From Lytechinus variegatus (Eukaryota), in assembly GCF_018143015.1 (NCBI RefSeq), contig NC_054741.1, forward strand, positions 72,100,687-72,164,686: a DNA stretch of 64,000 nucleotides, given 5' to 3'. Position 1 is the stretch's first letter. Every line of letters starts with the position of its first letter. The notes beneath the pieces are model-generated. The model saw only the letters and a list, made by a program, of their open reading frames with translations, ran no database searches and was not told the DNA's origin. The position numbers were made by a program, and so were the translations under genes. Shown here piece by piece: positions 5,501 to 41,574 of the stretch.

Positions 5501-5678
5501 ATACTGTATCTTGATCCCAATTGAACCAATTCTTGATATATTCCATCATGCTCCTCTGAGCTACATGTATGAAATACAAGATCTGCCTATCATATGATGT
5601 CATTTGGTGCTGTATTGTGATTTGCAGAAATATCGAATGTTCACTGTTTGTTCTTTGCTTCTGTTTTTTTGTATACAG

Positions 5679-6744
5679 ATTGATCGCCTGAAAGAGACAG
5701 CAAGACGGATAGCTGAACTACCAGATAAGGAATTTGATATTCTGATCACTGGCTCTGTCACCGACTTTCAGCCTCTGGTGTTTGAGCAACATCCCTGTGA
5801 TCCCCCCAAAGCACAGACTGTTTCTTGCCATATGGCTGCCACCGATGAATCTGCAAGCATCAGTGCTGGGGTAGATGGCAAGACTACAGCACTTTCAGTT
5901 ACTTCTGTCAAGAATGCGTCTGCTGAAGTAAAATCTGATGTACAATTGAAACATGCTGTGAATGATAAATGTTTGAATAATGTAACTCCTCAAGAAAAGA
6001 AGGAAGATGTCATTCATGTCACTGGCAAGAAAAATGGATCACTAGCAAACAAGGACTCTCAAGTTAAAAATGACATTCATCACAGCAATGTTGATATTGG
6101 GGCTAACATATCATTTGGATTAGAACTGAGTGCAACCAGCAGTATTGTGAACAAGCCAAAGGTAGATGAAAAGAGCAGTGTTAAAAACACAAATTCACAT
6201 AAATTGCTTTCAACAAAGAAAAAATCTTGTGACAGTACTCAAGGAAGTAAAGTATCTGCTTCCAGCCCTTCCCCACATACAATAAACAAATTGATGAATC
6301 GTGCTGTAGACATAGTTGATGCTTCCGAATTCCCAGAAAGTTCAACGTGTCCTAAACCTGAGTACATTGACAGTGAGCGCCTTGACCATTCTGACGCCGT
6401 AGCTTTGAACTATGTGTCAGGTAGTAGTGACTTTAGTCGCCGCAACCTGGGTAATAATGTCTTTGAGAAACCCGTGGAGCGGGAGATGCAGCCTGTGAAA
6501 CTGCATGTAGATAGCAGTAGGGAGCAAGAGGGACTATGTAGCAGCAAGCTGCCAAAGAACTATGGAAGCATTGAATCTCCTGAAACATCTGCTGGTGTCA
6601 ATGCTGTTTCATCTCCAGAGGATGAAATCTCTCCAACTGCAAGCAGTACAGCAGAAGTGCTTGGTGATGGTATTGGCTTAGGGGGTCCCGAAGTGGCAGA
6701 TGAACCCACCAAGAAGAAGAGGAAAAGGAAAAAGAAAAAGAAAG
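5679..6744 (+). CDS. Gene 1 coding exon (first visible; upstream exons not identified). Begins after acceptor tttttttgtatacag, phase 0: IDRLKETARRIAELPDKEFDILITGSV...; ends with a KKKRKRKKKKK NLS-like stretch, donor AAAG|GTCAGT (phase 1). Serine-rich low-complexity protein, identity not recognised.
   Basis: ORF 5604..6752 in the track; polypyrimidine tract plus AG at 5677-5678. The ORF part upstream of 5679 reads as intron (T-rich). Frame continuity with the next exon was verified (G + GA = Gly). Confidence 0.65.
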
Positions 6745-7140: not shown

Positions 7141-8070
7141 GTCTCACCTGCATAGCAGAGTGAGACTATAGGCGCCGCTTTTCCGGCGGCGGAGGCGACG
7201 GCGGCGGCGGCGTCAACATCAAATCTTAACCTGAGGTTAAGTTTTTGAAATGACATCATAACTTAGAAAGTATATGGACCTAGTTCATGAAACTTGGTCA
7301 TAAGGTTAATCAAGTATTACTGAACATCCTATTAAAGTTTCATGTCACATGACCAAGGTCAAAGGTCATTTAGGGTCAATGAACTTAGACCATGTTGGAG
7401 GAATCAACATCAAAATCTTAACCTGAGGTTAAGTTTTTGAAATGTCATCATAACTTAGAAAATATATGGACCTAGTTCATGAAACTTGGACATAAGGTTA
7501 ATCAAGTATCACTGAACATCCTGCATGAGTTTCACGTCACATGTTTAAGGTGAAAGGTCATTTAGGGTCAATGAACTTTGGCCGAATTGGGGGTATCTGT
7601 TGAATTCCCATCATAACTTTGAAAGTTTATGGATCTGATTCATGAAACTTAGACATAATAGCAATCAAGCATCACTGATCATTTTGTGCAAGTTTCAGGT
7701 CTCATGATTAAGGTCAAAGGTCATTTAGGGTCAATGAACTTTGGCCGAATTAGGTGTATCTGTTCAATTACCATCATAACTTTGAAAGTTTATGGATCTG
7801 ATTCATGAAACTTGTACATAAGAGTAATCAAGTACCACTGAACATCCTGTGCGAGTTTCAGGTCACATGATCAAGGTCATGTAAGGTCAATGAACTTTGG
7901 CCATGTTGGGGTTTTTGTTGAATAACCATCATATCTCTGTAAGTTTATTGGTCTAGTTCATAAAAAGTAGACATAAGAGTAACCATATATCACTGAACAT
8001 CTTGTGCGAGTTAGAGTAGTTTTCAAAGTCAGCACTGCTGCTATATTGAACTGCGCGATGCAGGTGAGAC
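7141..8070. mobile_element. TIR-bounded non-autonomous element inside the gene-1 intron. Termini are gtctcacctgcat (7141-7153) and atgcaggtgagac (8058-8070). It contains a GGC-rich microsatellite (7183-7212) and about 4.3 tandem copies of a 180-bp unit (7213-7990).
   Basis: Terminal inverted repeats were read directly. The internal repeat unit recurs with about 90 percent identity and contains AAGGTCAAAGGTCATTTAGGGTCAATGAAC. Confidence 0.7.
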
Positions 8071-8199
8071 GGCCAGAGGCATTCCACTTGTCGTATCATA
8101 AATTTGCCAGCTATCCATTAAGGTCAGTTTTTTATGTACAGTACGTGTGCACAATACTTCCTTTGCAATTGGGTATTCATGTTATATTTGATGGCTCAG

Positions 8200-8460
8200 A
8201 ATGGACTACCTTGGGCAAATATTCCATGAATCCATGTGTTGTGGCTCAGCGAATAAATCTCTGGACTTTGAACCACAAAGTCTGGGGTTCAAATCCCTGC
8301 AGCACTCGCATCTTTTGGCAAAGCGTTTATCTGCATTTGCCATTCTCCACCCAGGTGTAGTAAATGGGTACCCGGTAGGAAGGAATTCCTTGAATGCTCG
8401 AGTGTCCAATCAGGATAGCCATGCTAAAGCCGGGGAAATAGAATGCAGCGCTTAGAAACA
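8200..8460 (+). mobile_element. tRNA-Gln(TTG)-derived SINE, or tRNA pseudogene head (8235-8320) plus SINE body.
   Basis: The segment gtggctcagcg...ctctggactttgaaccac...ggggttcaaatccctgcagcac matches the anticodon arm of tRNA-Gln-TTG (CTCTGGACTTTGAATCCAG) and the B box GGTTCAAATCC. The D arm is degenerate. Confidence 0.55.
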
Positions 8461-8514: not shown

Positions 8515-9560
8515 AAAAATTTTAATTTCAATTTCAATTTAATTCAATTTATTCAAATTCCATTCAATAAAAAACACAAGATACAATATCAGAAAAATAC
8601 ATAATTGATAAGAAAGCAATTAAACATACATGAATACAAAATGAAATTTGGGAGACTGCAAAAGACCGAAAGGTCTTGACGAGGCAGACCCCGAGTGCCA
8701 TCATGGCGATACAAATATTGACATATTAAAAATGAGGACATGAAGGGAAAAAAGTACAGATGTCCTACCCCCCCCCATCGGGAACTGGAAACCAGTGTAA
8801 CAATTATAAATTATCTAAATACACTTTAAGAAAAAATTCATGAGTCATATGATGATATGATATGTTTTTTTAGCTTACATTTAAAAGAAGAAAGCGAAGA
8901 ACATTCTTTTATTGTACGAGGCAGTGAGTGCCAAACATCGGGTCCTCTATGTCTGATGGATTTATAAGCAAGTACCGGTACTGTTTTGGGATTACTAAGA
9001 TGAAAATTGTTGGAACTTCTGGTATTGTGTTCATGAACCTGGGTATTATGTATAAACATTGAATTAAAATTGCTTGGAACCAAGTGATTAGCATAATTGA
9101 ACATAAAGTTTGCAGTTTGTAAGATATTGATATCACATATTTTTAATATGTTCAGTTTTTTGAAAATTGGATCAGTATGGGCTAAGTAAGCAGAACTTGT
9201 GCAAATTCTTATGGCTCTTTTCTGCAATAACAGTAAGGAATTAACGTTTCTTTTGGTTCCACAACCCCAAGCAATATTAGCGTAAGATAAATAAGATAAT
9301 ATGAAAGAATTGTACAATAGTATAATAGACTTTGGCATTAATGTATCTTTTAGTTTGAACATAATACCAATAATTCTAGAAATATGAGTTCTTAGATGCT
9401 GAAAATGCAAATTCCAGTTTAAATGCTGATCGAGAATAACACCAAGAAATTTAACATTAGTTTTCCTATCAAAATCAAAGAAACAGATCAACGAAAGTTT
9501 GAGAAAAATCGGACAAAGAATGAGAAGGTTATGAGCATTTGAATATTGCAATCACTAATG
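8515..9560 (-). mobile_element. 5'-truncated non-LTR retrotransposon (CR1/L2/RTE-like LINE) fragment. It holds the RT C-terminal domain and a 3'UTR ending in a short-unit microsatellite tail (aaattg-like repeats at 8520-8560 on the minus strand).
   Basis: ORF 8838..9551 (-): ...KFLGVILDQHLNWNLHFQHL...LYNSFILSYLSYANIAWGC...LQKRAIRI. These are the characteristic LINE RT thumb motifs FLGV.LD..L.W..H and LY...VRP.LEY....W. Confidence 0.7.
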
Positions 9561-9990: not shown

Positions 9991-10175
9991 TTGAGAATGG
10001 GTATTTTCTGAAGGGGTATTTATAATTGGCTGTGGTCCTAGTTTAGGCTGTTTTGATAAAAAATATTGTAAACCAATAGTGAAAGCTCCTTTGTGTATAT
10101 TCTTTGAATGTTCATTGTCATGATATACAGAGAAGTCATTAACAGGAGTTGTATTTTGTTATCATATTTCTGCAG

Positions 10176-12335
10176 GAAATACTGAAGCAGATCCAGGTGG
10201 AACAGCCAACTCATCTGATCATGAGAACAAAGCACTTACATCACCAGGCACATCTGGGGCAGAAGACAGTAATAAAATAACAGATGCAGTCTCACAATCT
10301 TCGTCCAATTTAAAAACTCTGAATGGACCTAGTGGAGCACCTTCTAAATCATCTGCACCTTCAACAAAGACTAAGAAAACAGAAAACAAAAATGACAAGA
10401 AACAGACAAATAATGCAAAGAAACAAGTGGATTCAACTCTTGAAGACAACAAAGCCATCAACAAATCAGACAAGAGAGTTACTTCTGGGAAGCCTGACCG
10501 GCCAAAATCACTAGACATGTCAGATAAAGATGATGCTCTAAGGACTACACATGAATCGTCTAGTGATAAAAAGCCTTTAAATGATAAGTTAGTTAAATTA
10601 GATGGTGATAAAAGTGCTGCAAAGGAAGCTAATACATCTGATAATGAATCAGAAAGTGGAAATGATGCCGAAAAAAGCAGCGAGGATACCAGTATAAAGG
10701 CAAGCCAAGAGAGCTCCATGGACGAGAATTTTCGCGATGAAGATGAAGCAAATGGTAGTGAGTGGCAAACATATGGAATAAAGAAGAGCAAGAGGAGGGC
10801 TTATGCTGCAGAGGATAGATACACTTTTAGACCTTCACCTGCAGATAACCTCAGACGCTCTTATTACAGTGGACCATTTGATCCTAAGTTACGTAAATCC
10901 AGCAGTGAGCCATCGGGCATGTCCAAATGGATGGATGTGAGCGATAATAGACCAGTACATAGGCATGCTTCCTTTTCCCGCCACCATAATCTGAGAGAGG
11001 AGTTTCACAGCTTATCGCCTAGACCAGACAGTATACCTACAGACGAGAGTGCTGAGAAACCTCCCCCACCAGTTTCTGCCAACTCTTATGCAGCCAAACT
11101 AAAAGCTAAACCACCTGTTCCTCCTAGTGGGAGTGTTAAAAAACCCCAGGAAAATCAGCCCATTGTTGGAGATCAGCAAGAAAGCACAGTGGATGATAGT
11201 ACATGTAAAACACTTTCAGCTTCTCTTACTTCTAGTGCAACAGATGGCAGAGAACAGCAACAAGACCCTCCTTTGATAAAACCACCAGAAGTAAAGGACA
11301 ATTTTGAAACAAAGTCTTCTACATCATCTACTACTGGAGAATTGGACAGTCAGACTGATCTTAGTGATATTCCTGCCAAAGCATATGGTAGTGGTGTAGT
11401 TGGTGCTGTGACAGCTGCCAAATCAGCAAGTCTCCCACGTGATATGGGCCGTATACCGGATGCCGAGTTGCCAAAACTGGACAATACAAGTGCAGATAAT
11501 GTTGTGCAATATCTTGACTTGCAATGCTCCAATGACACTTACGCAGCACGCCTTAAACAAAGCATTAACAAGTCATCAACAGACACTAAAACACTGAGTA
11601 AAGTACTTAGCACCCAGCAGGATACATCAAAAGCTAGTGATGATATCAAACCAGCTAGGGCAAGTAAACTAGAGAGCAGCCATAAAGCTGTAAGCCTCGA
11701 CTCTGCACCACCTGCTCCGGCAGTGGTGCCCAAGAAATCATCTAGTGCCAATACTAAAGACAAGGACAGTATGCGGACAGTCAAATCTGAAACTAGCCTT
11801 AACTTGACGTCAGAGGGTACTCCTGTCATCCAGGACAACTCCTTCCCTTTTGAAGCAGTGCCAGCTGATAGCTTTGACATTACGTTTGGTTCAGTGAAAT
11901 TCTGCGAGAGTGATTTCGAACTGATCGACGATGTGACGCAAAGCAACCAACAGCCAAAGGGTAAATCTGATTCCAAGCCTGTGCCTCAATCCTCTCCTGT
12001 CAATAACCCAGAGAATCGAACCAATGCCAGCTCTCCATCTCCACCTCCTAACCAGGTCAGTTGTGCTGATCTGGAAAAGGCTTGGATTTCCAAGACTCCC
12101 CAGAACATTGACAAAAGTGACAATCACCATATCCGGAAGACTACTCCGGACAGTACCTCTACAGTGCCATCAGTACCTGCAAGCCTTGCTGCCATTCTTG
12201 CAAGTGGCAATAAGAACAGTATCCCTCATACCACAATGGGAGAGAATAATAACCTGAAGAAGAAGCCATTGGATCGACAGCAATATTGGACAGCCAGATT
12301 TAACCACTCAGAATTGGCAGATATGCTTCAGAAAG
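10176..12335 (+). CDS. Gene 1 large internal exon (2160 nt, about 720 aa). Extremely S/T/K/D/E/P-rich, predicted intrinsically disordered. Acceptor tttctgcag|GAAATACTG, donor CAGAAAG|GTAAGT.
   Basis: ORF 10427..12355 (642 aa) is the downstream part. The same frame stays open upstream to the acceptor at 10174-10175. Reading frame is joined consistently to exons 1 and 3. Confidence 0.75.
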
Positions 12336-13141
12336 GTAAGTTAATTATTGATTAATTCATTTACAATGAAGAAACTTTTGAGCATGATACCATGCACATG
12401 TCAAAATAATTATTAAAAAAGAATGATTGAATGTCAAATATGGAAAAGCTTTTGCTCAGAATTAAGAGAATAATGCCATTATTTTGTGTGCAACTTAGTG
12501 CAAGATGTAAAAAAATATGTTGTGATTTCAAATTCAATCAAGTTTGTTTCTTATTTCATTTGAACATGGACTTCAAGTTTTAAGGAATTCCTTAGGTTAT
12601 TTAACTACTAATCTACATGCACTTTGGAAATGATGATGAATGATTGGAGAGATTTCATTGAAACTTTAACATTAATCTTTGACCAACGTACATGCTATGG
12701 TATGAGAACTCTATCACTACTTGTTAATGTACCTTGTCACATATACTGATTTGATATTGTTGCATCATACAGTGTATTTAATTCATTCAGAATTCAGACT
12801 GTAGAAGTACATATATATATATATTTTACCAGGATATCCCCTGTCTAAGTGATTTTATCAAGTCATTATTTCACGTTGAAGAAGTTAATGCTTACATGTA
12901 TATCAAAAATTCCACCTGTGACAGGAACTATGCAAGCTAAGCATTACAATGTCATGGTGGTCTGAAGATAAATAATTAAATAATAAATTGCATGCTTAAA
13001 GGTTTAATGGTATTTTATACAATGCTGGAGTAGTGTCATAATTGCATTATATAATACATGTAACTATTTTATACGGTTAGTATTGAAATCAAATAGTTAC
13101 CATTTTGATTATATTTTGTATCTTTTATTTCTACCACACAG

Positions 13142-13209
13142 AATGGGAGAAGTTGAATTTTGAGCTGACCAAGCAGTCATCCAAGGTTGTGGTCTATGAA
13201 GAAGAATAG
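13142..13209 (+). CDS. Gene 1 terminal coding exon: (E)WEKLNFELTKQSSKVVVYEEE, stop TAG 13207-13209. Acceptor ttctaccacacag.
   Basis: A phase-1 join with the exon-2 donor gives GAA, and the open frame ends at TAG. AT-rich 3'UTR follows; a candidate AATAAA lies at about 14466. Confidence 0.65.
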
Positions 13210-19800: not shown

Positions 19801-20164
19801 AGATGCAGGTAATATTTCATCCATGACTATTCTTAAGTACATGTATTGTAGATGTGCTACTTTTACTAGATTTCATACTGTTTATTATCAAAGATTTTAC
19901 TATATTATTTGCTATTTTTTGTTTGTTCCCGCCATTAGAATAAAGCAGTTGAATGTTTGATTGTGTGAATCAATTTGTGCAAATTAACATTTCTAGGCAT
20001 GTGTCTAAGATACGTGTGTATATTAGAGAGCGTCACATTTTTTGATTACTTGCAAATTCCCTTAGATCTCACCTTAAACACAGAGATTGTGATTGCTGTC
20101 AAGCTTTAATAGTCCAAAGTCATGTTTAAGAGCAGAATCTTCATATATTGTATTAAAACCAAAC

Positions 20165-21890
20165 AAAACCATATCCGTAATAACATGGATGCTTATAGTA
20201 TACCGATTAACTCCAATTGTACATCATCTTGTATCAAGATTATGTTTATGATTTGTTTCCATGCCAAGACTTGACACGTCTTGGGACTTCGGGGCCTGTT
20301 ATTCTCATCCCATTGGATCACAACACATGTTATGGGTTATAAAAGAAGTTTCGTCAGTTGTATCAAATACTTCAAACTTGTGAAAGTTTTGAGGAACTGG
20401 CCCAAGACTGTTACTGAAATCCCTGACCCATCAATTTTCATTTTTTATGAAATACATATCATTTGTGTGTGAAAATTCTGCAGGTCTTGATCGACTCTGG
20501 TCGAATGCAGCTTAAAGTGTATTAACCCAACATATACTGCATCAAAGCTTTGGCATAAATTTTGCTTCTGGCTCTTGCTACCAGTAATAGAACTCTTTAT
20601 ATGTAGCATTTTGACAGTAAATGTATTGTATTGTATCTTTAGACCTGCTTGCAACTATATCAGAGCTAATTTATCTAGAGTTAATAGAACTGTGTACTAG
20701 AATTTAGTTTTCATTCTATATCTTATTCTTACACATTTCATAAGAAGTGATATATGAATCAGAGTAAAGAAAAGTGATTTTTTCTATTTTGAAGGCTTAA
20801 TTCTTTCGAACTCCTATTTCTTTTTCTTTTCAAGCTTATTCTACAATCTTTATTTTTATTTTATGGTGATCTAATTCGAGATACTGATGTGTACATTGGG
20901 CATATGACGTGGGCTCATACAATAAATGAAGCAGGATAATGATCTGCTCACAAGTTTAATTATTCATGTGTTTGTGTCTTTTACATGTGAATTGTGTTTG
21001 TACATGATTACGATGGAGGTTGTTTGGTCATAATAAGCGAGATTTCACTCAGTGACGTACAAAGGATTAAAAAAATTTAATGTGTTGAAAAAGCTTTGAA
21101 GTCTTAGTAAAAAACTGGGGAACTGGAACAGCAGTTTCATCCTAAGTTTCATATCTTAAGACCACTGCACACCTGACTGTTCGCGATCCGATTTTGGAAC
21201 AAATCGCATTTTGCTCATTTTTGTCTCGCCCACCAGAGGTGAAGGCGAGACTTAGGGATCCAAATGTCGTCCGTCTGTCACAAATTTAATGACACATAAC
21301 TCCACAACCGTAAGTCGCTTTTCAACCAAACTTGGATGGTAGATGGACTTGGGGGACCTGCATCTTTTGCTGCAGTCGGAGGTCACATGGTAAGGTCAAA
21401 GGTCATTTTCAGGTCAATGTTAAAGTTTACATGCAAGACTCTCTTATGACACCTAACTTCGCAACCGTAAGTCGCTTTTCAACCAAACTTGGATGGTAGA
21501 TGTACTTAGGCAACCTGCATGTTTTGCTGCAGTGGAAGGTCACATGGTAAGGTCATTTTCAGGTCAACATTAAAGTTTACATGCAAGGCTTCTATGACAA
21601 TTCTGTTGCGTGCCCTCACAAATCACGATATGTCTGGTTATTTTCATCAGTGGGCGAGACAAAATCGCTTTTGCCTTGTCTGAAACTGTATGGGACATAT
21701 TTTATTTGAGGTTAAAATTAAGTGAAAGAATACTAATATAACCATTTTGAAAGATTGCAAGTCTTTATCTTGGAGTAAAGGCCAAATTGGTTTCAAATCG
21801 TAGCCAATCGTACCACTGCTATGACGTCATTACGACTAGATATTAAATTTGCTTTTATTTAAAGAAGGATGATAGCATAGTCACAGATTT
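20165..21890. repeat. Left arm of a large inverted repeat pair: 20165-21232 plus 21667-21890, interrupted by a MITE at 21233-21666. It is homologous in inverted orientation to 41575-42835.
   Basis: Long stretches are reverse-complement identical. ORFs 20281..20472 (+) and 42511..42834 (-) encode the same peptide, and 20900-21060 matches 41940-42110. Confidence 0.85.
21233..21666. mobile_element. MITE with 17-bp TIRs (ttttgtctcgcccaccag ... cagtgggcgagacaaaa) and two internal 150-bp tandem repeats carrying AGGTCA arrays. It is inserted into the left inverted-repeat arm, and the right arm shows the empty site.
   Basis: TIRs were read directly. The right-arm homologue (about 41790) runs ...gctcatttt|ctgaaaatg without the element. 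A second copy of the family lies at 54130-55050. Confidence 0.75.
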
Positions 21891-22139
21891 AAAAAATTGA
21901 GTCGCAAACCAAACGTATGGCGTGCAGTTGCCTTAACAAAAAATTACAAGTATGTTGTTTGTCCAGAAACAAGGACTACACTGCTGTTTTGATTCAATTT
22001 TCGAAAAAGACTTCTTTGTTCTTTATTATGACGGCCATTTGACAATACATTTTCTCCGTTATTTAATCCTCCATACACCACTAAGTGAAAACTCCCAGAT
22101 AAGCCAGTTAATGGATACAATCTAAAGCCCCCGTCACAC

Positions 22140-24900: not shown

Positions 24901-27900
24901 CTGTAAGGTAAAGGAAAAGAAAGATATTGATTATAATGAGCTGGTTTCAAAAACAAGTTTAATATTACTGCAGTATTGCAGAATGATGATCATGATGAAG
25001 TTCTGGGGTGCATTTCATTAAAGGACTTGACGGATGTTTTATTCAACAAAGTATGTTTTATCCAACATTGAAAATGTGCTTCTCAACCAATCAAACTCAA
25101 GGAGAGATGTTGGATCAGACAATCTGTTGGACATACGTGTTAATGAAACACTCGCCTGATTTTAGACAGGGAAATGCCTTTCATAAATCTAGTTGTATAG
25201 TTTTATCATCAGGATTACATGTAGCACTTACAGTTTTACAACCAAAAAGTTTTATTCTTGGGTGTTTGCCAACAGGATAGGCCCTGAGTCAAATTGTCAC
25301 TCTCTGTCTCTGCCCTCCTCATTTATAATGTAATAGGACAATTCATTCTTCACTCCAGACACCATCCCCAGTAAAGGTCTTTATCCTCCCTTTTTCCATT
25401 CATTTCCCCCTCAAACCACACACTGTTCCCTATTGACTGCATTTACATCAAGCAACCGTATAAAAAAATAATCAAAATTTTTCTTCAGCAAGACATTTGC
25501 AGACACCATAGTGTTTTAACTGCATATTGGAAGTGTCCCAAAGAAAATACTACCATCTCCTGTAATACTACTGCAGGGAAAGGGTTGAAAGACTTGACAT
25601 ACCTGCATCTCTGGTCCAGCCATAGCCATGGCCTTGATGGTCTCGGCTCCAATGGACTGAACCATGTTCCTGAACCTCTCTGTCTCAATGTCAGACATCT
25701 GCTTGGCCTTGTTGACCTCCAAGGCATTCTGTTCCTTGACGTACTTGGTCTCGGCCTCACGAGCATTGGTAAGGCGTTGCAGCTCAGATTCCTACAGGAG
25801 AGGGGTTGAGATCCAGAGGTTTTCAGTTTTATAAATTATCTTTTACCTTAGGACATCTCTTCCAAAATTAAAATGGTAAATTACAAGACAAAATATTATA
25901 ATGGCATTTCCAAACAAAGTGTGTGTATTTTAAAAAAGTTTCATACTTTTAAATCGACAGAAATTCTGACAGAACAGAACTCTGAATTCATTGTTTTAGC
26001 TGTAAAAATGTTCTTATATTCACACTTCCATGTCAGATCACACACTAGAAAGATGTACACACTAGAAAGATGTACTTAGTATACTACCAAATACAGAGGG
26101 TACATTTTCCTTTAGACAACAATTTGGTTGGTATCAAGAAATTGTTAACATTGTTCTTACTTTTTGACAAAAGTATTGTCATAAGTTCTGACAGCAATTA
26201 TGCTAAAAGTACACTTGCTAATTCAATATTTCTTAATGCCAAATGTACAACAGCTGAAAATTAAATGCATTCCTTTTCTGAAAAAGTGAAAAGCGAACTG
26301 AAACCCCTCTGTAAATAAACTGTATAAAGTCTATTTCCCATACAGTCATTCCGTCTATGGTAATGAGGTTGATGCAACTGCCATGTAGAACCCACTGCAG
26401 TGAAAGATACACAAATGCAATACTCACTGATTCAATCTTGGCTGCTTCAGCCTTGAGCCTGGCCTGGTCAACAGCAGCCTCTCCTTCAATCCTGGCAGCC
26501 TCAGCTCGAGACTGTGCCTCTGCCTTGGCCTGACCGGTGCTCTCCACAGCTGCACTGTTGGCCTGGAGCTCCAGGAGTTCCTTGCGAGACTTCTCAGCCT
26601 CTGCTTCATCCAGGATCTTCTGACGCTCAAGGCGACCACGAGCCTCTTGCTCTAGACGCTCAGCCTCATGCCTGAAATTTAAGTGAAGTTTGGGTGGCTT
26701 ACTAAAAATACTTATTTCATTTTTACTTTACGGCAATAGTACTGGGTGCAAAAAAGAAACATAATTGACAAAATTTGACTTCCAAGAACGAATCAAGAGG
26801 GTGAGGATTCATGTATACATACTTCTCAAAGTGAGTGAAGGCCGTACCAACTCTACAAAAACTGTGGCAAATAGCACTGAATGACGGTATTTGCACTTTA
26901 CATCAACATACATTGCAAAGAATTAATTATCAAAGACTAATTTTCTCTTCATGTTAGTGGTCAAAGTGAATTCCCACTTCACCAAGTCCAGGTATATGAA
27001 TGGCTACACGTTTTCTCCTGTTACTCTTTATTCATGTTTTGGTGAAAGCATTAGACTTTTGCCATTAGGCAATTGATGAAGATTGAAAATGTCTTCCATA
27101 CCTGGCAGCAGCCTCCTGTGAGTTTGTGGTAATCTCAATAGCCAGCTGAACAGACTTCTGTAGAGCATCCCTGGTCCTCTGGTCTACAGGCTCTACAGAC
27201 TGGATATCAATGGAGGTGATCACTAGGCTATTCTGAGGGAACAGGAAGGACTCCCTCACCTTGTTCTTCTCGTCGAAGCCAAAAACAGAGGCACGGATGA
27301 TCTTGGCAGAATTCTGCGTTGGAGAAAGGGAGAAAGGGAGAAATGAATACATTTTATTTGAAGCTCACTTCATCTTTCCATTAATAACTGAAATATGAAT
27401 ACCCCATTAATCAAAATGAAGGAACTAACATGAATGGGATGATTTTAGCCAAGTTCTTATATGTCTGACAAAAGGAAAACAAGTATTTCTCATTTGAATC
27501 TCCATTAATACTCTTTTAATAAAAAAAAAATCTCATTCTTAGTACATCCCATCCCCTTTGATTTAAATCACAATTTTAGTACATTCCATTCCAATTTATA
27601 CAGGAATAAATTTTTAAATAAAAGGAGAATTGTCAAAGCTAAATTGATATTTCCATGATCTGATCCAAAAGGTAGGCAATCTATAATATACCCCTTTATC
27701 ATTGCACTTTTCAATCATACATACATTGCTCTCTCTCTCCTGATTCATAGAAAAAAAAATTCTAGGTGACCTTATCTTCTTTTTGAGTAGGTAGAGGGTC
27801 CAAACTTATGAGCATAACCTTCATTCAGATCCATTTCATATCAAAGTTCTCATTGCTAAACTGTACCTTGTGGAAATCATCAAACTGTACTCCAGCAACT

Positions 27901-30900
27901 GCACCCCTGATCCTGGATGCAATAGCCTTGCAGGCATCACCAATGAAGTCGGGCACACTGAAGAGCTTAGCAGACGCTACCTCATCAGTCTTATTTGGAA
28001 CCTCAAAGTGCCTATCATCGGGAAGAACGGTGCAAAAAAACATGAAACTTAATATATAATGATGGATGCTCTGGGAATGAGACAATATAAATTGGCTTAA
28101 AGTAATTATCAAAATGTAATGCCAAGGATGAATGAAAATTTGTAATTCTGCTACCGTTTCCCTACGCTCGTCTGTGTGGATTAAAATTCTTTGATTGAAT
28201 ATGAAATGATGGGTATCACCTTCAGAACTAAACAAGGCACATTACAAAGCAAAACGGCATAGCTGTACCCTCCAACGGCTGCATGAGCAAAAGGATAATA
28301 TTTCCATCTTTTCAATAACAGCCACTAATTTGTGATAATACACCTACATCCGTCTTGTTTAATATATGAAGTGCAATAGAGTTATGTATTCACGTACACT
28401 ACCTACAACAATATTTTTGAAAGACTACATCCATTGACATACACTCTCCACGCTTACCAGTTGTATGAGAGCTGAAGCTGCAGGCGGGCATGGTCAGCGG
28501 TCTCAATGGTAATGATATCTGTGCAGAAGTCTGGACCCAGGAGAAGGCAAAGGGCCTTGATGACGTTGGGGCGCTTAGGTTTGCCTCCTGAGAGGCTGAG
28601 CTGAGTGAACTGTTCATCGGGACCAAGCATGACCAGCTCAGGACCAAAGACAACCCTAGAGAGATAAAAGAAACAGAATATTTAAATGATTTGTATGTTT
28701 GATTAAAAAAATATAACAATTATCTTGAATGTTTTAACATTCATGAATTCATTATCTTTCATGAGATCTTATTTCTTTGCTGGGCAATAATGCCTTAGTC
28801 TGCAAGAACCGACCCCGATTGAAACGCTGATCAACAGATGGGTCTTCACATAAAGACTAGCACATGGAAAATTGCAATGGGGCTTTTGTTACACACATCA
28901 TTATAGGCTTTGCATTCAGATCTCTTGAAGGCTTTGAACAGCTGCAGACTAATAATGCCTTGCCAATCATTAACTTAATCATTGTTCACTTTACAAAATA
29001 AATCTTTATCAAACATGGGCCCTGTAACATTAAGAGATATATTCTGTATTTACAATTGATAGCAACTTAGTGTACATAATTTGCCATAGACTTACATCCA
29101 AGCTTATCTGTACAGATGGTTGTATCGTTTATGTTAAAGGGACCAGATCCTCCGATATTAAATTCTACCTGTAAATCTGCAGTATATTTAAAACATCAGG
29201 GTCTCATTTCATGTAGAGTTGATATAAAAAAATGCAGTTTCTATAACACACATGTATTTACTATCAGCCAAACGGATTGAATGATTTCAATAGCTTTTAA
29301 CTCTCATTGTAGACTTGTTATTACAAATTTTATGGAACTCGATACCTCATTATTTGATAGATAATATAGTGATGAATAAATGGCTAGTGATGATGCCACT
29401 GACAATCATCCTCACCTGGCCTTCTTCTCCTTGTAGTCATAGATCTGCACAGCAGCATTGTGAGGCACACGGAAGGATACCACCCTCGTCTTCTCCCTGG
29501 CCCTGGAGGCCCCACCTCCCCTCCTGTCACTACGGTCTGCCAAAGGGTCCCTGGCACTCTGAAGGAGCTCCTCTACTGCTGGAGGCAGCTCCTTGGCCCA
29601 GAGCTCCTCATCCTGGCTCAGCATGTAGGTCTCTCCTGTAACTGCTCGTACCTGGAGAGGAAGAGTGATTAGAGCAGAGTTAAAAGATCCATCTTTTGGT
29701 CAATGGTGGTTAGACATAAGATCCCACAAGAATAGATCAATGCTTGGTGATTAAATCCATTATATATAAACTCAAATTTATGTTTGTAAACAGATGTTAT
29801 TATGACCTTTTCCCTTTCAAAATTGACAGGTTACTATGTTTACAAGGGTGGTCTAGTGTAGCAATAATCAAATACTAAAGCCATTAAATCTGCAACACAA
29901 TCTTATTCTTACCACACTATTTTTGTGTGTTTGAACTGAGGTAATAGACCAAAGATTCTAAGTCATGAAATAATTTTCATTGCCATAAAGGCCTTGTAAA
30001 TTGTGTTTGATTACAGGCTTTGAAAGAAGAAATAACATGTACCTTTCCAGTCTTGGTATCCCGGATGTATACTCCTTCATTCTCATCGAGAGGGATAGCC
30101 TTACGCCTGGTGACGACCTCTACCTCCACAGGAGGTACATACTCACAAGGTCCCCTGATCATCCACCTGTCTCCTGGCTGACGAACTGCTCCACTCTAAA
30201 ACAAAAATTAAATCATGAAGCACAACTTAGTCTAAAATGATAGTTATATAACCTAAATAACAATATATCTCACCTTCAAGTAACAAATTTTAAATATTCT
30301 CAAGAATAAGCATATTACAAGGACGGATTAAGCACTAAAGGCCAGATATTGCAACCCGCCTGAAGATACATTTTTTTTTCATCATAATCTACATATACTC
30401 ATACAGACATTAACCTTAAGTCTTACTTTGATGCTATTAATAATGATAATTAAGCATCCAAGCTATTTTGTAGTCATTAAGCATTGAAAACCAGGGAAAT
30501 TACAAAATATCTCTACTCTGTCTAAGCTTGACAAAATTTAATGATACAAATGGAAACGACGTCAATGACCAAGGAATATGCACCAGGTTTTGCACTTGGA
30601 ATAAACTGTGAAAAACAGTAAGAACAGCAAAACTGACGTTTCACAATTTTGATTTTGTAAATAAAATAACCCTTTCAGCCCATGTAAACATAATTCTTTA
30701 TTGTAACACCAACTGTTGCTAGAATAATGCATGTGATATCTGCATCTTTTCGGTGCAAAGTTTTATTCATATTCATTTATAGCAATTTTTTTTTCATTTA
30801 TGAGGATAATTTCAAAGTGACTTACAGCATTGGCATCCTTGAATGATTCCTGAGCTCTGAGAATAAGACCTTCATCTTCACCAAGGATGAATACAGACTG

Positions 30901-33900
30901 GATACCTTGCTCAAGCGTCTCACCGGGTTGAAGGAAGAAAGACACCTCACCCTACAAGAATCATTGAATAAAATGAGAGAAACTGTGATATGGTCGACAA
31001 TGCAAGAATAAATGCAGTGACAGAACAGAAATGAAGAGTTCATACCTCCTTTTCATTGTTAAAAAAAAGATTTACTATTGATGTGTTGTAACAAGCTACA
31101 TATAGGTAGTTAATGTTAGGCATCATTATCATTAATGTATGTTTTATTGTCATAAGGAGCTTTTAGATTCCTTTTTCATGATGCAGAATCTTCTCATTTG
31201 GGGAAATCAGCCTTCACAAGCATGAATTATGAGGGGAACATGGCATTAAAGGAGGGAAGATTCTGCAACATGAGCTAGGTTGTAAAATCGCATGCTCCCA
31301 GTAAGAAATCTGCATCATCAAAAGTAGTACTCTGTACTATCAGAATGAAAAATAGTTATTTCAAAAGAGTACCAGATCTACTCATATTATGATTCCACTG
31401 CATAATTTAGTAAGGAATTAGAGAATTACTAAAGCCTGTAATGGAATTATATGTGTAATTAAATGTGAACTATATTCTTTACTGCTGATATGAATTAAGA
31501 ATTTTCCAGCATATATGAAGAAACCCTAACTTTTTATCAGTTTTTGGAACTGAAGTGGCTACCCTGGGTAAATATACAGTTATTATTATTATCATTATTA
31601 TCATAAACTATTTCAATGTAGTGTCAAAAGCAAAGTGTATAAATGAGAAAACAGACTGATTAACTTGGACTTGTAAACAACAAATGAATGAATCAAGAAT
31701 AGACCTTGCTGGGAATTTCTTTCAATCTCTTTACCTTGATTAATCTCTTCTGTCCAAGCTGTGGTTTTCCATCGGCCCCGACAGGGTCCACGATGACACA
31801 GTACTGGCGATTGGTCAATGTGTTGATGTCTACAACTCTTACAACCTATCAGAAACAAGAACATGAAATAATCATTATTCAGGGTATTCTATGAAGTGAT
31901 TCTTAAAAATACAAGTAAACAAATTAGATTTGAATACAAACCAAACTTTCACTCTGTTGTAAAAATATATGAATGCTTTACAAAAGCTGAACAAGTGCAC
32001 CATCTTATTATTTCAAATAGCTCATTTATATCAATTCAAATATTATGGCTACAATCAACAAAGGTTTGAACTATGGTCAACCTCAAAAGGTCTCAATTTT
32101 TTAGCGTATATTGGTACAAAATCTAATCCAACTGAATAATATTCTATTTCATGTAGGTGTGTGTGTCTATGACTTTAAAGTCCTGTTGAGAATTCTGGTC
32201 TTCTTGTCTATATTTAGCCAAACTTTAACACAATTATTTTTCTTTTCCTTATGGAATTATGTGCTCTATGAATACACTGCAAGTCCTTGTAGAATATCTT
32301 ACTAGGTAAAGGAGAGTGATGTAGTTTCTTACCTCCTCATACACATCTGGAATGTGTGCATCTGTATCAGCCATAGTGATCAGCCACTCCTCACCATTCT
32401 TCCTTGTCTGATTCTTCATATCTACAAATGTGCGTGTGGCTCTTAGGTGAAGAGCATTCTGTAAAAATATAATGTTTGTATTATCATTAATATTTCAATG
32501 ATAAAATACATGTAATTATGCAACAACAATCAAGAAAACAAGATCCCACTTTATTTAAAAGCTAACTTTATTCTTCAATTCAAATAAACCAACTAATTCT
32601 TAATATTTGATTCTGTAGCACCAATCACAATCTGATATATAAGAGTAAATAAAACAATAAAAAAACTCTGAAAAAGATGAAATTTCATCACAAAATCAAT
32701 ATGAAGTTGTAAATTCATTTTAAAGTAAAAAACTGATACTTCTCGTTTTTACTGTTTAACTTATTTTCCATATAAAAATAGCTTTAATTGGTCATTGCAC
32801 ATAAAAGATAATCAATTTTGAAGGAAAACAATCATGTAGCATACCTTTTCTGTGAGCACGTAGGCATTGACGGTATCGACCACCTCCTCATATGCCCCAG
32901 GGAGGTAGGCACCAACCTTCTTAACCTGCCACTCCTCACCAGTAACCCTAGTATTGCCTTCTCTATCTTTGGTTTCCTTACGAGCCCTTAGCTTGATAGC
33001 CTGGTTAGGTCTGATGATGGTTGCCCTGATGGTCTCATCCACCACCACTTCCTTGCGGGGGATGTAGGTACCGGGTCCCTCAAAGAGCCACTCGTCGCCA
33101 GCGACGCGCTTCTGGGTACCGTCCTCGAAGTCAAGGATGGCTCGGAGCCTAAGGGCAGCGTTGGCCTGGACAACCTTCAAGGCAGTCACAGCCTGTTGAA
33201 GAAATGGACATGTACGCCATTTAATATAAAATGGACAGGCAGTATTTTCATTTGAGTTTTGGGCAATGAAGCCTTTTTTCTCAAGAAGTTTGGGATGTTG
33301 AAAAAAACTTGGCCGAAATAACACTATATAACCAACGAGAAAGCATTCCCTTTGACATTGCACAGTACAGTTATTTTGAATGTAAAAAGCTGGGATATGG
33401 ACAAAGTATAACTTTAAAAGAATTTCTAGGCATTGAAAAAAAATCCCCCAAATACGAGATGAGAGATTGACCTCGAAATACGCAATTTAAAATGTTGGAT
33501 GCAACTTCTGTGACCTGCTTACTTAGCAATAATGTATGAGGGAAGAAAAGATCAACACTAAAAAGTGCATAACTTTATCAACTAAACGTCAAGCCCAAGA
33601 TCTAATGTAGATTGAACTGAGGCAATAGAAAAGATATATGAACAATTCTTTTTTAATATCTAATCAAATATTAAAGACTACATCAAGACAACAGTAAAGA
33701 TAAGCCCAATCTCACCTGCTTCAATACTTCTCCTGGGTAGAGAGGGAACGGTTCCCGGGCTAACCTGATCTCCTGGTCAGCATGGGATAGTTTGACCTGT
33801 CCAAGACCATCAAAGACAACCTGACCAGCATCATTCCTGACCACAGGGTTCTCTACAATACAGTAATGCCTAGGAGGGATGGTGATCATCTTCTCGGGAC

Positions 33901-36130: not shown

Positions 36131-38875
36131 AAAAGATGCAAGTCACAAAAAAGACATCTTGAATACAAAAGTTGTTCTAATGTTAATGGAAACATCCTTG
36201 GAAAACAGAAATATAGGATGTGTTTCAACTGATCAATATCATTAGGCTAAAAAAAAGTTCATGAATGCTACATGTAGATGGAACAGGATAATTATCAATA
36301 TCTCAAATTTGGATAAAAACTAATATTTACTTGCCTCCTATTACCAAAATAAAACACTATGGTATGGATACTCATGTGAGCTCTATCCTGTAAAATCAAT
36401 TATGTATGTGTATTGTACATATGTGTAGAATGGTAAATCCATTATCAATTCTGAATGAACTACAGCTAGAAATTATGTAAAAGGAATCAGTGTCCCAGAT
36501 CAGTGTACATGATATTAAAAAGCATGAAAGTAGTGTTCATAAGTTGAACTCTCTATTTGACTATTTTTTTTCTTTATAAACTGCTGTGAAATTTTTGGTG
36601 AAACAATTTGGTCTGCCAGCATCTCTTCTTTTAGCATTACAGGATTACTACCCAAATGTGTATGGATATAATATTTGCACTCTAACATGCGGGAGAATGA
36701 GCTCCATCATTATCATCTACTATAAAAGATAGGGTGGAGGGGAAGGATTGCACCATCTTGCATCATGCTAAGAAACAGCAGCAATTGGCACTGCATACAG
36801 CAAAGTCTTTGATTGCAACACCCTTCATCAGAAAATTTTCATCTGACCTACCAAACATAGCATGTCAGCCATGGATGAAAGCCACAAAAATCCAATTTAA
36901 CTTTGTGAACATGTGTGTGGCTATTTGCAGGCAACAAAACAAACCTCTCTGATAATTGAGATTGTTTTTACTACATTCTGAAATGTTATTCAATGTTTAA
37001 AAATCAAACTGAGAAGCTGCAGGGGGGGGTCATGGTTAGGGAGATGAACACAGAACGCATCTCTGCTTCAAGAAAAACACAAAGCTTCCATCTCTGCATT
37101 GCACAATTATGCATCAGAACTTCTTATTGCACCATCCCACATGATGCATTGTGGTGCAATACATGTTTTGATCTACCTGTACTACATGGAGATTAGCAGA
37201 GGATTGGTGACACATCCATGCCCTGCAGGGAAGATGCCAGGAGACTATGACTGGCAACACACACCTGTCAATGCCAATTTCAAAACAAGGATGAGTCTAG
37301 ATCTCTCTAGTAAGCACTGCAAGATATCACAGGTAATTGGCTCATTACAGAAACATGCAGGCCTACATACAGTACCATCTGCTGTAAGCCTTGTCTAAAC
37401 TGCTCTGTTAATGTGAAGTAATGTTATTGTTGGATGGTTATTTTTTTAATTTTCTATTTTGTTTAACTTACAAGTGTTTTCTTCAGCTGTTTTACATTTC
37501 TGTTCCGTCTAGACTCAAGTTCATTTGTTATTTCAGCAGTGCCTAGCCTACCATTGTTATGCGCATTGTTTGAAACTGAATAGTTTACCTAAGCTTAAGT
37601 TAGACCGGAATTCATAACCGCCTTTTCTTCTGGCATTCTCCTAAGACCTAACATCCCCGGACCCCGATGTCATGGATGTATAGTTTAGTGAAACAACCAA
37701 CAATGTACATAGACTGAAGCTTTTTTCCAACCTTAAAGGGCCCAGCCACTGACAAATCATGGGGAAATTGAATCAATACGAAATTTGCAAAATACCAATT
37801 GACTTGCATAATATAATCTGTCTGTAATGAGCACCCGTCGGACTAATGCGATAAAAGTTTGGACAGCAAGAATTTGACCGAACTTGTGGTTATTTACTTC
37901 GGATCATCGCAGTTCCAGTTTCCAACAATTCCAATTCCTAGACTCATAGGTCTCTTGATTGTAAACCAAAATAAATAACCTCTATGAAGTTACATGTTTC
38001 AAAGTGAAAACATGCAGTTTACTTCTGGTTGGTTAGTCTACTAACTATTGCTCTCATATAGACCTCCCAGACATGCCAGCGTCTATTTCTGTACATAACA
38101 ACCCCGGCTTGCAGCTGAGTGAAATACTTGCCTTGAATCCCTTTTTTTTCTGAGATTAGCTTTGATTTCCCAATGATTTGTCAATGAAAGGTCCTGGTCC
38201 AGAATGGGGATATTTATATCTCAATAAATAGAGTAAAATTCACGAAGAAAAAATGCTGAAAATTTGATCAAAATCGGAAAAAATAAAAATATTGAATTTC
38301 AAAGACTTGTAGTATTCCATTGAAACAGCTCTAGGCATGTCTTTATGAATATTCATTAGGTGGGATGATGATGTCATATCCCCACTTGTTCTTTTGTGTT
38401 TTATTATATGAAATTAGGTTTATTCAAAATTTGTCTACCATAGTACCAAGAACTAAAACAATTGGAATGACAACTCATTAACAGCATTAGTTATTTATTG
38501 CCACAACTAATTTCATCATTATTGAGACATAACATTTACACATGTATGAAATAATGAAACATTTATGATTTCATGTAATAACATAAGAAAAAGGAAAGTG
38601 GGGGTGTGACATCATCAGTCCATCTATGAATATTCATGACGATAACTATTTTCACAAAATATTGATAAACTTTGAAATTCAATAACTTTGTGGCACTAAT
38701 GCAGTTTCGCACCGGCCGATTACCAGCATACCTCATCACCAATAGGCCTTCTGATCTTGTTAACAAATGTCATAAGTTTCTCAGACTCAGTCAATTTTGT
38801 TATCTGAATTCTGATTTTGATGAAATTTTTAGCATTTTACTATGTCTATTTAGTCATCTATTTGGATATATTTTC

Positions 38876-39020
38876 AGTCCGAACCATCCCTTTAATAATC
38901 AATAACAGATCATAAAACTAGATTGTATTGGGTCGGCAAAGAATTTTTTTTTTTCAGTCCGAACCATCCCTTTAATAATCAATAACAGATCATAAAACTA
39001 GATTGTATTGGGTCGGCAAA
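38876..39020. repeat. Direct tandem duplication of a 76-bp unit (cagtccgaaccatccctttaataatcaataacagatcataaaactagattgtattgggtcggcaaagaatttt).
   Basis: Two near-identical copies back to back. Confidence 0.7.
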
Positions 39021-40079
39021 GAATTTTAGCTGAAACATGCCTCCCCCACCCCCTCCCCTCCAAATGAAAATCGGACCTCTGGGGAGCGTTTCATGAAAGG
39101 ACTTGTCAGACGTTTTATCCGACAGTTACCATAGGAACATTGCTTATTAACCAATCAAAATCAAGGAAAGATGTCAGATCTGACAACATGTCGGACGAAA
39201 ATGTTTGTGGTAAAATGTACCACAGTCTGGGGCACGCGCGAATGCTCCCTACATATAGTACTGTGGGATGGGTTGGAGAATAGAGGATACATGCACATGT
39301 ACTATGGGTGTGTGCACACAACAATAGACCCAAACCCCCAAGCCCTGTGCATTCATCCATGCTTGGGTGCACAACTCAGCAAGGCTGCATTGTCAGGCCA
39401 GCTAAGGGATAAAATCATCACTTGAAGAGTCGACTGGCTGAAGACGAGGACGTCTGTTTACTACAACAACTTTGCTTCGCCTTTCGCCCTTCGAGGTTAT
39501 CTACAACAAGCTACTATATATCATATCAGCACCAGGAATACATCACATCTCAGCAGCAACATCACCACATAGTCTGCAAGTTTCTTTGGCCTGCTTTTTG
39601 GTTCTTGTTATTATTTTCACCGTGCCTGGCACCATCACTTTCTTGGTAAGTATCACTGATACTTCCCTTCTGTTAACCCCCTTTCCTTCCTTCCCAACAG
39701 GTTAATCCATAACCAATATTCTTATTATTTTACCACATGCTGATGAAACACTCCCCGGAGCTCTGCTCAACTCAAGTCTCAAAACACCACCCACCACCAC
39801 CAAGGCACCAGCAGTGCAGTCCACGCACAATCAACTCACCTCTCAGTCTCAGCTCAGTCTGACAAAAATGGGCATCATCACTCCATTTCACCACTACTAA
39901 GTACTAAAATAGTCTGTGAATATTTCTAAAGATGAGCCATTCTCAATCTTTGGGTCTAGTAAGATTGAAAACTAATTTACTTGTTCTTATATACTCACCT
40001 TGCTCGGCTCTCAGTCTCGGCCCTCTGACTTCACAATATTGCAAGTGCTGTATGCAATATGCATGCAGTCTTATTCATT

Positions 40080-40867: not shown

Positions 40868-40950
40868 TTTACAAACCGGTGTGTTGGCTCAGTAGGTATA
40901 TAGAGCATCCGTCTCACAACCGGGAGGTCGGGAGTTCAAACCCCGGCCAC
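40868..40950 (+). mobile_element. tRNA-like sequence, probably a tRNA-Val(CAC)-related SINE head or tRNA pseudogene, followed by a SINE-like body to about 41060.
   Basis: A box tggctcagtaggta..agagc and B box gagttcaaacc. Acceptor stem ggtgtgt pairs 6/7 with acatcac. Anticodon loop is ctCACaa. The genomic CCA and long D loop argue against a functional tRNA gene. Confidence 0.45.
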
Positions 40951-41199
40951 ATCACCAGACCAAAAGACGTTAAAAAAGTTGGGAGTTCAACCGTAAAGGC
41001 ATAGAGCCTCGTCAATCTGGCGCTGCACAGCGGCTATACTGGGCTCATGATCAATTAGGCAAAGCAAATTTTCGGAATATTTCATGTCATGTCTATTTCG
41101 ATCAATAAAATGAAATATTGATATGAAATATGGAATATGGCCGCTCAAAATTGTTTGTTTCCTTGAAGGGGTATTACAGTCACTTAATTTTAGCGTTAT

Positions 41200-41540: not shown

Positions 41541-41574
41541 GGTAACCCGACACATGCTCCGGCGACGATTGCTC

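Follow-up and report, generated by a model that had tools for sequence, protein, structure and literature searches.

We analysed a stretch of 64,000 nucleotides from the sea urchin Lytechinus variegatus (RefSeq assembly GCF_018143015.1, contig NC_054741.1, positions 72,100,687 to 72,164,686 of the forward strand), here called the window, and concentrate on three related repeat elements in it: E1 (7141–8092), E2 (21222–21679) and E3 (54134–55052), all on the + strand. Each carries a tandem array whose units contain AGGTCA half-sites. A sequence-only reading of the window had described these elements as a family with terminal inverted repeats (TIRs) and had proposed that their AGGTCA direct repeats may be response elements of nuclear receptors; we found three related elements at the places it gave. 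E1 lies in sense orientation in an intron of gene 1, the exons of which map by tblastn to 5676–6710, 10175–12334 and 13141–13206. A 743-residue open stretch (10124–12352) is 96% identical to L. pictus, 84% identical to S. purpuratus and 51% identical to Diadema setosum proteins. E2 is intergenic and is inserted in a dispersed repeat, R, and E3, a member of the E2 subfamily, retains the 5′ part and lacks the 3′ end. We consider it highly probable that the three elements represent two subfamilies of a non-autonomous Helentron of the HINE class in Lytechinus. Other names for this class are DINE-1 (Drosophila), pearl, DTC84 and Cg_HINE (bivalves) and Tsp (Strongylocentrotus).

The ends of E1 can be read from the orthologous locus of L. 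pictus, to which the non-coding DNA of the window is 86–90% identical. This locus runs collinear with the window as far as 7146 and continues from 8093 with no gap. The empty site reads aaaaccgTTTTT|gtatcataaatttgcc, i.e. ...ccgTTTTT|gtatcataaatttgcc, and the junctions are ...aaaaccgTTTTT|gtatcataaatttgccagc... in L. pictus versus TTTTT(GTCTCACC...CACTTGTC)gtatcataaatttgccagc in the window, with the element in parentheses. The boundary is ambiguous by at most 2 nt, and there is no target-site duplication (TSD). Judged by this clean empty site, E1 is a complete copy of 952 bp that inserted after the split from L. pictus. Its position agrees with that given by the sequence-only reading (7141–8070), but the element ends at 8092, 22 nt past the 3′ inverted repeat.

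E1 opens with a 5′ subterminal inverted repeat (subTIR), GTCTCACCTGCAT (7141–7153), which has 13 perfect matches to the 3′ subTIR, ATGCAGGTGAGAC (8058–8070), and extends to 21 nt at 86%. Downstream of the 5′ subTIR is an internal inverted repeat (IR) complementary to it, GTGAGAC (7160–7166), giving a 5′ hairpin (DNA fold −9.6 kcal/mol, z = −4.6), and then a degenerate (GGC)n microsatellite (7172–7214). The central array (7213–8012), delimited with Tandem Repeats Finder (TRF) and by alignment, holds about 4.5 units, of 192, 192, 163 and 163 bp plus a partial unit. TRF describes it as a period of 192 bp in 1.9 copies (91% matches) and a period of 163 bp in 3.5 copies (82%). The 3′ tail (8071–8092), whose end is set by the empty site, finishes in CTTGTC. 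We also observed that units 1–2 (7213–7445) owe their length of 192 rather than 163 bp to an extra ~29 nt that include the near-palindrome CTTAACCT-G-AGGTTAAG. Just downstream of E1 (~8230–8300) lies a tRNA-like segment, gtggctcagcg...ggttcaaatccctgc, probably a tRNA-derived short interspersed element (SINE).

E2 is also a complete copy, of 458 bp. Repeat R, about 1.25 kb long, is present in the window as two inverted copies, one at 20163–21221 plus 21680–21901 (+ strand) and the other at 41572–42820 (− strand). The latter is a paralogue without E2; it is 94.4% and 85.7% identical to the two E2 flanks and is contiguous across the junction. Read on the minus strand, the empty site (41791|41790) is gctcaTTTT|ctgaaaatg, with an ambiguity of 1 nt and no TSD. 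L. pictus lacks the stretch containing E2, which makes this empty site paralogous and not orthologous; repeat R is shared with the L. pictus orthologue only to window position 21043 (L001 27418–28443). The 5′ subTIR of E2, TGTCTCGCCCAC (21222–21233), is 100% complementary to the 3′ subTIR, GTGGGCGAGACA (21650–21661), the pairing reaching 15 nt if the flanking T/A is counted. Between them lie an internal IR, GGCGAGAC (21244–21251), that forms the 5′ hairpin (−11.4 kcal/mol, z = −5.3), a short (GTCY)n microsatellite, GTCGTCCGTCTGTC (21266–21279), of the Cg_HINE motif class, and a central array (21287–21600) of two ~157-bp units that are 86.5% identical to each other. The 3′ tail (21660–21679) contains the palindrome CAAAA-TCGC-TTTTG and ends in CCTTGT, as set by the empty site.

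E3 is ~90% identical to E2 (90.5% by blastn between 21272–21590 and 54719–55042). Its 5′ subTIR, TGTCTCGCCCAC, and IR, GGCGAGAC, form a hairpin at 54134–54155 (−9.7 kcal/mol, z = −7.6). The GTCY-type microsatellite is split into 54195–54205 and 54705–54726 by a foreign 499-bp MITE (a miniature transposable element with inverted repeats; 54206–54704, + strand), which is flanked by the 8-bp TSD GTCCATCC at 54198–54205 and 54705–54712. This nested element has imperfect TIRs (CACTCATTCA... / ...TGAACAAGTG), which, together with the 8-bp TSD, suggests a hAT-type MITE; a second copy of the same type, 93–96% identical, is found 712 bp upstream at 53503–53993. The central array of E3 (54734–55045) consists of two 155-bp units (TRF 54736–55044, period 155 bp, 2.0 copies, 95% matches). 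Just past unit 2 the element is truncated by a foreign 445-bp MITE (55053–55497, + strand) with 71-nt TIRs (85%) and flanking TTAGAC, built of 19-bp GGAGAC/GTCTCC sub-repeats. After unit 2 we found no 3′ subTIR; truncation has left E3 with the 5′ repeat alone. An 11-nt match, GCGAGACAAAA, at 55359 was considered as the 3′ end of E3 and rejected as a chance match, since it lies inside the nested MITE and its continuation is unlike the tail of E2. The MITEs nested in E3 show TSDs, indicating that duplications at E1 and E2 would have been visible.

E1 and E2 share one order of parts. From the 5′ side, this is a T-run target, a subTIR of the form GTCTC(A/G)CC..., a complementary arm that makes the 5′ hairpin, a microsatellite, 2–4.5 units of 155–192 bp, a 3′ subTIR, and an 18–22-nt tail ending in CTTGT(C), and the tandem units all have the same orientation relative to the element ends. 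Five T's stand directly 5′ of E1, E2, E3 and a copy from Diadema described below. The subTIR pairs match over 13 of 13 nt in E1 (GTCTCACCTGCAT / ATGCAGGTGAGAC) and 12–15 of 15 nt in E2 (TGTCTCGCCCAC / GTGGGCGAGACA). Hairpins are present at the 5′ end in 3/3 copies, with stems of 7–8 bp or more and loops of 5–13 nt, and none of 200 shuffles folded as stably. The string TTGTCTCRCC, proposed earlier as the start of the TIRs, does occur four times in the window versus 0.16 expected; its leading TT, however, belongs to the target T-run. The earlier statement that the three elements are built alike holds for their shared plan and their tandem units, but E3 has no 3′ inverted repeat and is twice interrupted, and E1 belongs to a subfamily separate from that of E2 and E3: the termini differ, as do the microsatellites (degenerate (GGC)n versus GTCY-type, both as read by eye from the letters), and the units are ~50% identical overall. 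Six of the seven features that define HINEs are present, in full or in part, in E1–E3, with the 3′ stem-loop equivocal (a palindrome in E2, but weak folds in both tails). A search of the window for other members of the family, whole or fragmentary, found none beyond E1–E3, and there were no Rfam matches in or near them.

We next describe the AGGTCA half-sites. AGGTCA occurs 46 times in the window, versus 29.7 ± 5.6 expected, and 23 of the 46 occurrences are inside E1–E3; outside these elements there are 23, versus 28.7 expected, and hence no excess. Same-strand clusters of at least three RGGTCA within 45 nt number seven, versus 0.015 in shuffles. Clusters with at least two RGGTCA within 20 nt number eight, rather than the roughly ten counted by the sequence-only reading; all are on the + strand and inside E1–E3, one per unit. 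Four of them are in a single gene-1 intron, as that reading had stated, between the exons at 5676–6710 and 10175–12334, and they are there because the transposon landed there. Direct half-sites had been claimed for every unit, and this holds for 8/8 units, each with two to four same-strand RGGTCA. The proposed unit length of 150–180 bp fits the units of 155, ~157 and 163 bp but not those of 192 bp in E1 units 1–2. Since all clusters lie in repeat units and AGGTCA is not in excess outside them, the AGGTCA pattern is wholly a property of the eight units. The clusters are an inherited part of the transposon unit and travel with it.

Each unit has one block of half-sites; we denote direct repeats by their spacing, so that DR1 is a direct repeat spaced by 1 nt. 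In E1, unit 1 has AGGTCA-A-AGGTCA-TTTA-GGGTCA (DR1 + DR4; 7356–7378), unit 2 has AGGTGAAAGGTCATTTAGGGTCA, with the first half-site mutated (7548–7570), unit 3 has a perfect DR1 + DR4 (7711–7733), and unit 4 has AGGTCA-8-AGGTCA-4-AGGTCA, with one AAGGTCA heptamer lost (7860–7889). In E2, unit 1 reads AGGTCA-7-AGGTCA-1-AGGTCA-5-AGGTCA (21380–21416), and unit 2 has DR7 + DR5, again with one heptamer lost (21537–21566). Both units of E3 have DR7 + DR1 + DR5 (54827–54863 and 54982–55018). All blocks are on the + strand. Thus, E1 has DR1 + DR4 spacing, with GGGTCA as the third site, E2 and E3 have DR7 + DR1 + DR5, and the heptamer-loss units have DR8 + DR4 (E1 unit 4) and DR7 + DR5 (E2 unit 2). Of the spacings proposed earlier, DR1, DR5 and DR7 are present, but none of the eight blocks has DR3, and DR4 and DR8 had been overlooked. 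The perfect DR1, AGGTCAAAGGTCA, is present in five copies, with one more carrying one mismatch, versus 0.09 expected.

The block is best described as a micro-array of the AAGGTCA heptamer, which most Lytechinus units have twice and those of Diadema three to four times; on its upstream side stands an AGGTCA-CATG half-site and on its downstream side an (A/G)GGTCAAYG half-site. Exactly 7 bp are missing from E1 unit 4, and the same number from E2 unit 2, indicating that heptamer copy number changes by slippage.

We then compared the units of the two Lytechinus subfamilies. The units of E1 are homologous to those of E2 and E3 (global score 21, versus −3.6 ± 4.6 for shuffles; ~50% identity). The best local alignment between the subfamilies is a 62-nt segment centred on the block (score 54, versus 16.0 ± 2.4 for shuffles), within which AAGGTCAAAGGTCATTT is identical at 17 of 17 positions. 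All units have a second box, box A, (C/G)AAACTTGG, at 66–67 nt upstream of the DR1 core. Inside the arrays, conservation of the block is 81% versus 79% for the rest of the unit in E1, and 87% versus 90% in E2 and E3. Conservation of box A within arrays is above that of the block, at 90% in E1 and 100% in E2 and E3. A separate observation concerns pairing: box A of E1, CATGAAACTT (7286–7295), is a perfect inverse complement of AAGTTTCATG (7335–7344), just upstream of the block, and this pairing, which recurs in each E1 unit and may form a hairpin, is not present in E2 and E3.

Lytechinus and Diadema diverged roughly 200–250 Myr ago by our estimate. The orthologous gene of Diadema setosum (GCA_964275005.2 OZ188189.1, L007 14629–15792) contains an independent HINE, with five T's upstream, its own termini (TATGCCTCCGC / GCGGAGGCATA), an IR that forms the 5′ hairpin arm, a (GTCC)10.5 microsatellite, and a clear 3′ palindrome, GTCGC-cata-GCGAC (GTCGCcataGCGAC). 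AAGGTCA heptamer blocks recur in it every 140–180 bp, in units that are too diverged for TRF and that have 3–4 (A)AGGTCA repeats each. Unit 1, the best preserved, has ATGAAACTTGG at a 67-nt offset from the block, as in E1, with z = 3.9 at the identical register; for box A in units 2–4, z is 2 or less. The recurrence of the AAGGTCA block with a GAAACTTGG box ~67 nt upstream in the Diadema HINE hints at a constraint on the transposon, and the apparent persistence of the block and second box across Lytechinus and Diadema is a modest lead from very few copies.

Blocks of the same form are also found in other contigs. An invertebrate-like metagenome contig (L004; JAAUYA010245445.1, 640–1360) has ~190-bp tandem units with such blocks, and an echinoderm-like contig, L009, has the block twice, 172 bp apart, at the contig end. 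In the L004 units, runs of AGGTCA are on one strand and runs of TGACCT on the other, and AAGTTT-RGGTCA is present in the Diadema units as well as in those of L004. L003 and L005 (about 900–940 and 2920–2966, respectively) contain two copies of an element with long TIRs that has the block in its centre. Beyond the block, the metagenome contigs L002–L005 showed no similarity to the urchin loci. A weak cluster at 3250 of the L. pictus locus was rejected because it is a coding exon, presumably of a MORN-repeat protein, and not a repeat. L006 and L008 contain no element, and a lone DR1 in L008 is outside any repeat.

The short perfect inverted repeats near both ends of E1 and E2 are also what would be expected of classical cut-and-paste MITEs (TIR transposons) that hold a tandem array by chance, and such elements were named MITEs in older papers (PMC3879986). 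The sequence-only reading, which took the elements for a TIR family, was right that they are a family of transposable elements with AGGTCA units. The repeats, however, are short and subterminal, there is no TSD at either of the two empty sites, and the layout is that of HINEs (PMC7492417, PMC4067079). Moreover, 18–22 nt of element follow the 3′ repeat, the two ends are built asymmetrically, with a 5′ hairpin and microsatellite versus a 3′ tail, and the true MITEs nested in E3 do show TSDs, providing an internal control. We regard a classical MITE as very improbable. A canonical Helitron was rejected because the ends of E1–E3 are (T)GTCTC.../...CTTGT(C) and not TC...CTRR, because inverted repeats are present, and because the target is a T-run and not A/T. 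For a HINE, the Rep/helicase-endonuclease of a Helentron encoded elsewhere would mobilise E1–E3 in trans; this enzyme would recognise the subterminal repeats and hairpins of the copies, and insertion at a T-run would proceed by a rolling-circle-type mechanism. Several observations weigh against the HINE assignment. The 3′ tails fold weakly (z = −1.9 in E1 and −1.0 in E2), whereas HINEs should have 3′ stem-loops; the 3′ flank is not T-rich, being G in E1 and C or T in E2, such that the published 'TT' target rule is satisfied only on the 5′ side; no autonomous Helentron that shares the termini of E1–E3 is present within the 64-kb window; E2 lies within a 775-bp stretch that is absent from L. pictus; and the family is sampled by three copies in the window and one Diadema element.

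For the AGGTCA block of these HINE copies, persistence would be explained most economically by common descent of the units plus slippage, possibly with constraint at the level of the transposon. By parsimony, persistence would then need no host regulatory role. The sequence-only reading had offered, as a fallback, that the motif is simply the unit's own signature, and this is the better-supported proposal so far, since all clusters are explained by the unit, E1 is absent from L. pictus, and the 7-bp changes are those of slippage. Compatible with descent plus slippage is a more tentative idea, which we consider possible but doubtful, that the block and the GAAACTTGG box ~67 nt upstream together are a cis-element of the transposon and a predicted site for a Helentron-encoded or host protein. 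Such a cis-element may act in transcription, replication, opening of germline chromatin or maintenance of the array, and the resemblance to nuclear-receptor sites may be either exploited by the transposon or coincidental. Consistent with this idea, the block is the best-conserved stretch between two Lytechinus subfamilies whose units are otherwise ~50% identical; the Diadema units, although highly diverged, keep 3–4 (A)AGGTCA, and the offset of ATGAAACTTGG matches that in E1; the same type of block is found in the tandem units of the L004 contig and in L009; and in bivalves, too, HINE and satellite units reportedly have in common two conserved boxes of no assigned role (PMC5139131, PMC7492417). 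Arguing against it, conservation of the block within arrays does not exceed that of the remaining unit, half-sites vary in number and spacing, box A in Diadema units 2–4 reaches a z of 2 or less, and the number of copies is very small; conservation could also be mimicked by horizontal transfer or by the heptamer renewing itself through slippage. The sequence-only reading had first raised the possibility of a host function, with the arrays as response elements of RXR/RAR, HNF4, COUP-TF and similar receptors, by which the family would spread enhancers responsive to hormone or orphan receptors into introns. The DR1 site known from textbooks for COUP-TF, HNF4, RXR and PPAR-type receptors is AGGTCAAAGGTCA, and AAAGGTCA and TCAAGGTCA are extended half-sites of monomeric receptors. 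Five units carry exact AGGTCAAAGGTCA, versus 0.09 expected, and on this ground in-vitro binding of the blocks by DR1-type or monomeric nuclear receptors would be probable. There are further half-sites at DR4, DR5 and DR7, such that direct RGGTCA pairs at 1–5 nt spacing comprise the five AGGTCAAAGGTCA and their DR4 and DR5 neighbours, and all intact blocks contain AAAGGTCA strings, with TCAAGGTCA found in the Diadema blocks and in unit 4 of E1. As further points in favour, COUP-TF and other receptors are expressed in sea urchin embryos, and mammals are known to have receptor sites borne by transposons. Conservation at orthologous positions, by contrast, was not found: E1 is missing from the L. 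pictus intron, indicating that the host gene is independent of E1 and that E1 has no conserved host role, and E2 is in a segment that L. pictus lacks. E2 and E3 are within or beside other repeats, the spacing that would specify the dimer varies freely between units, AGGTCA is not enriched outside E1–E3, and our search of the accessible literature turned up no paper that connects AGGTCA with HINE or Helitron repeats or describes nuclear-receptor-type half-site arrays in HINE central repeats. We judge it quite unlikely that the arrays are receptor elements for host genes. Overall, we rank an inherited signature maintained by descent and slippage first, a cis-box of the transposon second, and host receptor enhancers third.

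A more far-reaching proposal, which we think improbable, is that echinoid HINE repeats descend from an ancient unit, a GAAACTTGG box with (AAGGTCA)n ~67 nt downstream, that would be conserved from Lytechinus to Diadema to recruit a predicted DNA-binding protein. Candidates for this protein are maternal or orphan nuclear receptors of the COUP-TF, TR2/4 and FTZ-F1/ERR/NR4A types. Receptors of the FTZ-F1/ERR/NR4A types read AAGGTCA as monomers. If this proposal were true, sea-urchin introns would hold, in the form of this family, a reservoir of genuine receptor-binding arrays that is genome-wide and varies between lineages. If the block and box persist genome-wide, they would suggest a candidate function, protein binding and possibly binding of nuclear receptors, for the long-noted 'conserved boxes' of HINEs and satellites. 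Explaining a striking motif cluster as the repeat unit of a transposon guards against reading it as a designed enhancer. E1 is also a clean presence/absence difference between Lytechinus species that places four perfect or near-perfect DR1-type arrays in an intron, and hence is a natural experiment on expression.

Other features of the window include exons of the major vault protein on the minus strand, at about 26236–33486. Reverse-transcriptase-like open frames, which we read as retrotransposon fragments, are found in the gene-1 intron (8841–9551, − strand) and near 50 kb (49619–50820, + strand). There is a borderline Rfam match to a tRNA at 40878–40954 (30.3 bits, versus a gathering score of 29), a perfect tandem duplication of 80 bp × 2 at 38871–39027, and a 15/30-bp minisatellite, (GGAGCAAxTGTCGGC)n, at 43492–43693.

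An example of transposon-borne receptor sites in mammals is the primate Alu, a SINE with experimentally shown receptor binding, which carries DR2 retinoic-acid response elements. Like Alu, the family of E1–E3 is a mobile element with AGGTCA-type direct repeats in its consensus that would seed potential receptor sites near genes, as Alu does at high copy number. Unlike Alu, the carrier is a rolling-circle-type DNA element with a tandem array and variable spacing.

Satellite-like cores are well known in HINEs of bivalves, mites and insects, and such elements have been on record from sea urchins since 1985; E1–E3 are new copies. DINE-1/HINE elements of Drosophila and mites (Thomas et al. 2014) have 13-bp subTIRs, an IR placed 3–22 bp from the one at the 5′ end, a microsatellite, central repeats that may be lacking, and a 3′ stem-loop; they target T-runs, leave the target site unmodified and are mobilised by the Helentron Rep/Hel-endonuclease. 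The same work notes Helentron proteins in S. purpuratus as well as DINE-1-like elements in sea urchin (Tsp, Cohen et al. 1985) (PMC4067079). Relative to DINE-1, the 3′ stem-loops of E1 and E2 are weak, the T-rich flank is on the 5′ side only, and the central repeats are far more prominent than in most DINE-1 copies. Satovic and Plohl placed S. purpuratus elements in the pearl-type family (PMC3879986). Pearl, DTC84 and Tsp resemble E1–E3 in being modular, with a flanking module, ~160-bp core repeats, an ACGG (= CCGT) microsatellite and one-sided subterminal inverted motifs; Tsp and pearl are likened to E1–E3 by published descriptions and not by sequence. Their repeat units reportedly contain a region of reduced variability, which in DTC84 is a palindrome and in CvA a microsatellite-like motif.

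Oyster repeats were compared with the block directly. We rejected homology to oyster CgiSat10, which shares (AAGGTCA)3 at the unit junction, because the sequence upstream of it scored 16, versus 15.0 ± 2.2 for shuffles, with 177 of 500 shuffles as good. Oyster units of the Cg170 type (CgiSat01) have no AGGTCA block, and the supplements of PMC5139131, on the bivalve boxes, contain no sequence with GGTCA. A close parallel to the layout of E1 and E2 is provided by Cg_HINE of the Pacific oyster, which has a 5′ subTIR of 11–12 bp, an IR of 7–12 bp at a distance of 1–12 bp, a GTCY/GTCC/GTCK microsatellite, tandem repeats mostly of 140–180 bp in 2–5 copies, a 3′ subTIR with a palindrome, and a T-rich target with no TSD (PMC7492417). 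Cg_HINE differs in its host phylum, and E1 has (GGC)n and not GTCY; we liken the elements by layout. Nonetheless, Cg_HINE has the same order of modules as E1 and E2, units of fixed orientation and T-rich insertion sites without TSDs, and, like E1, it is commonly found in introns (PMC7492417).

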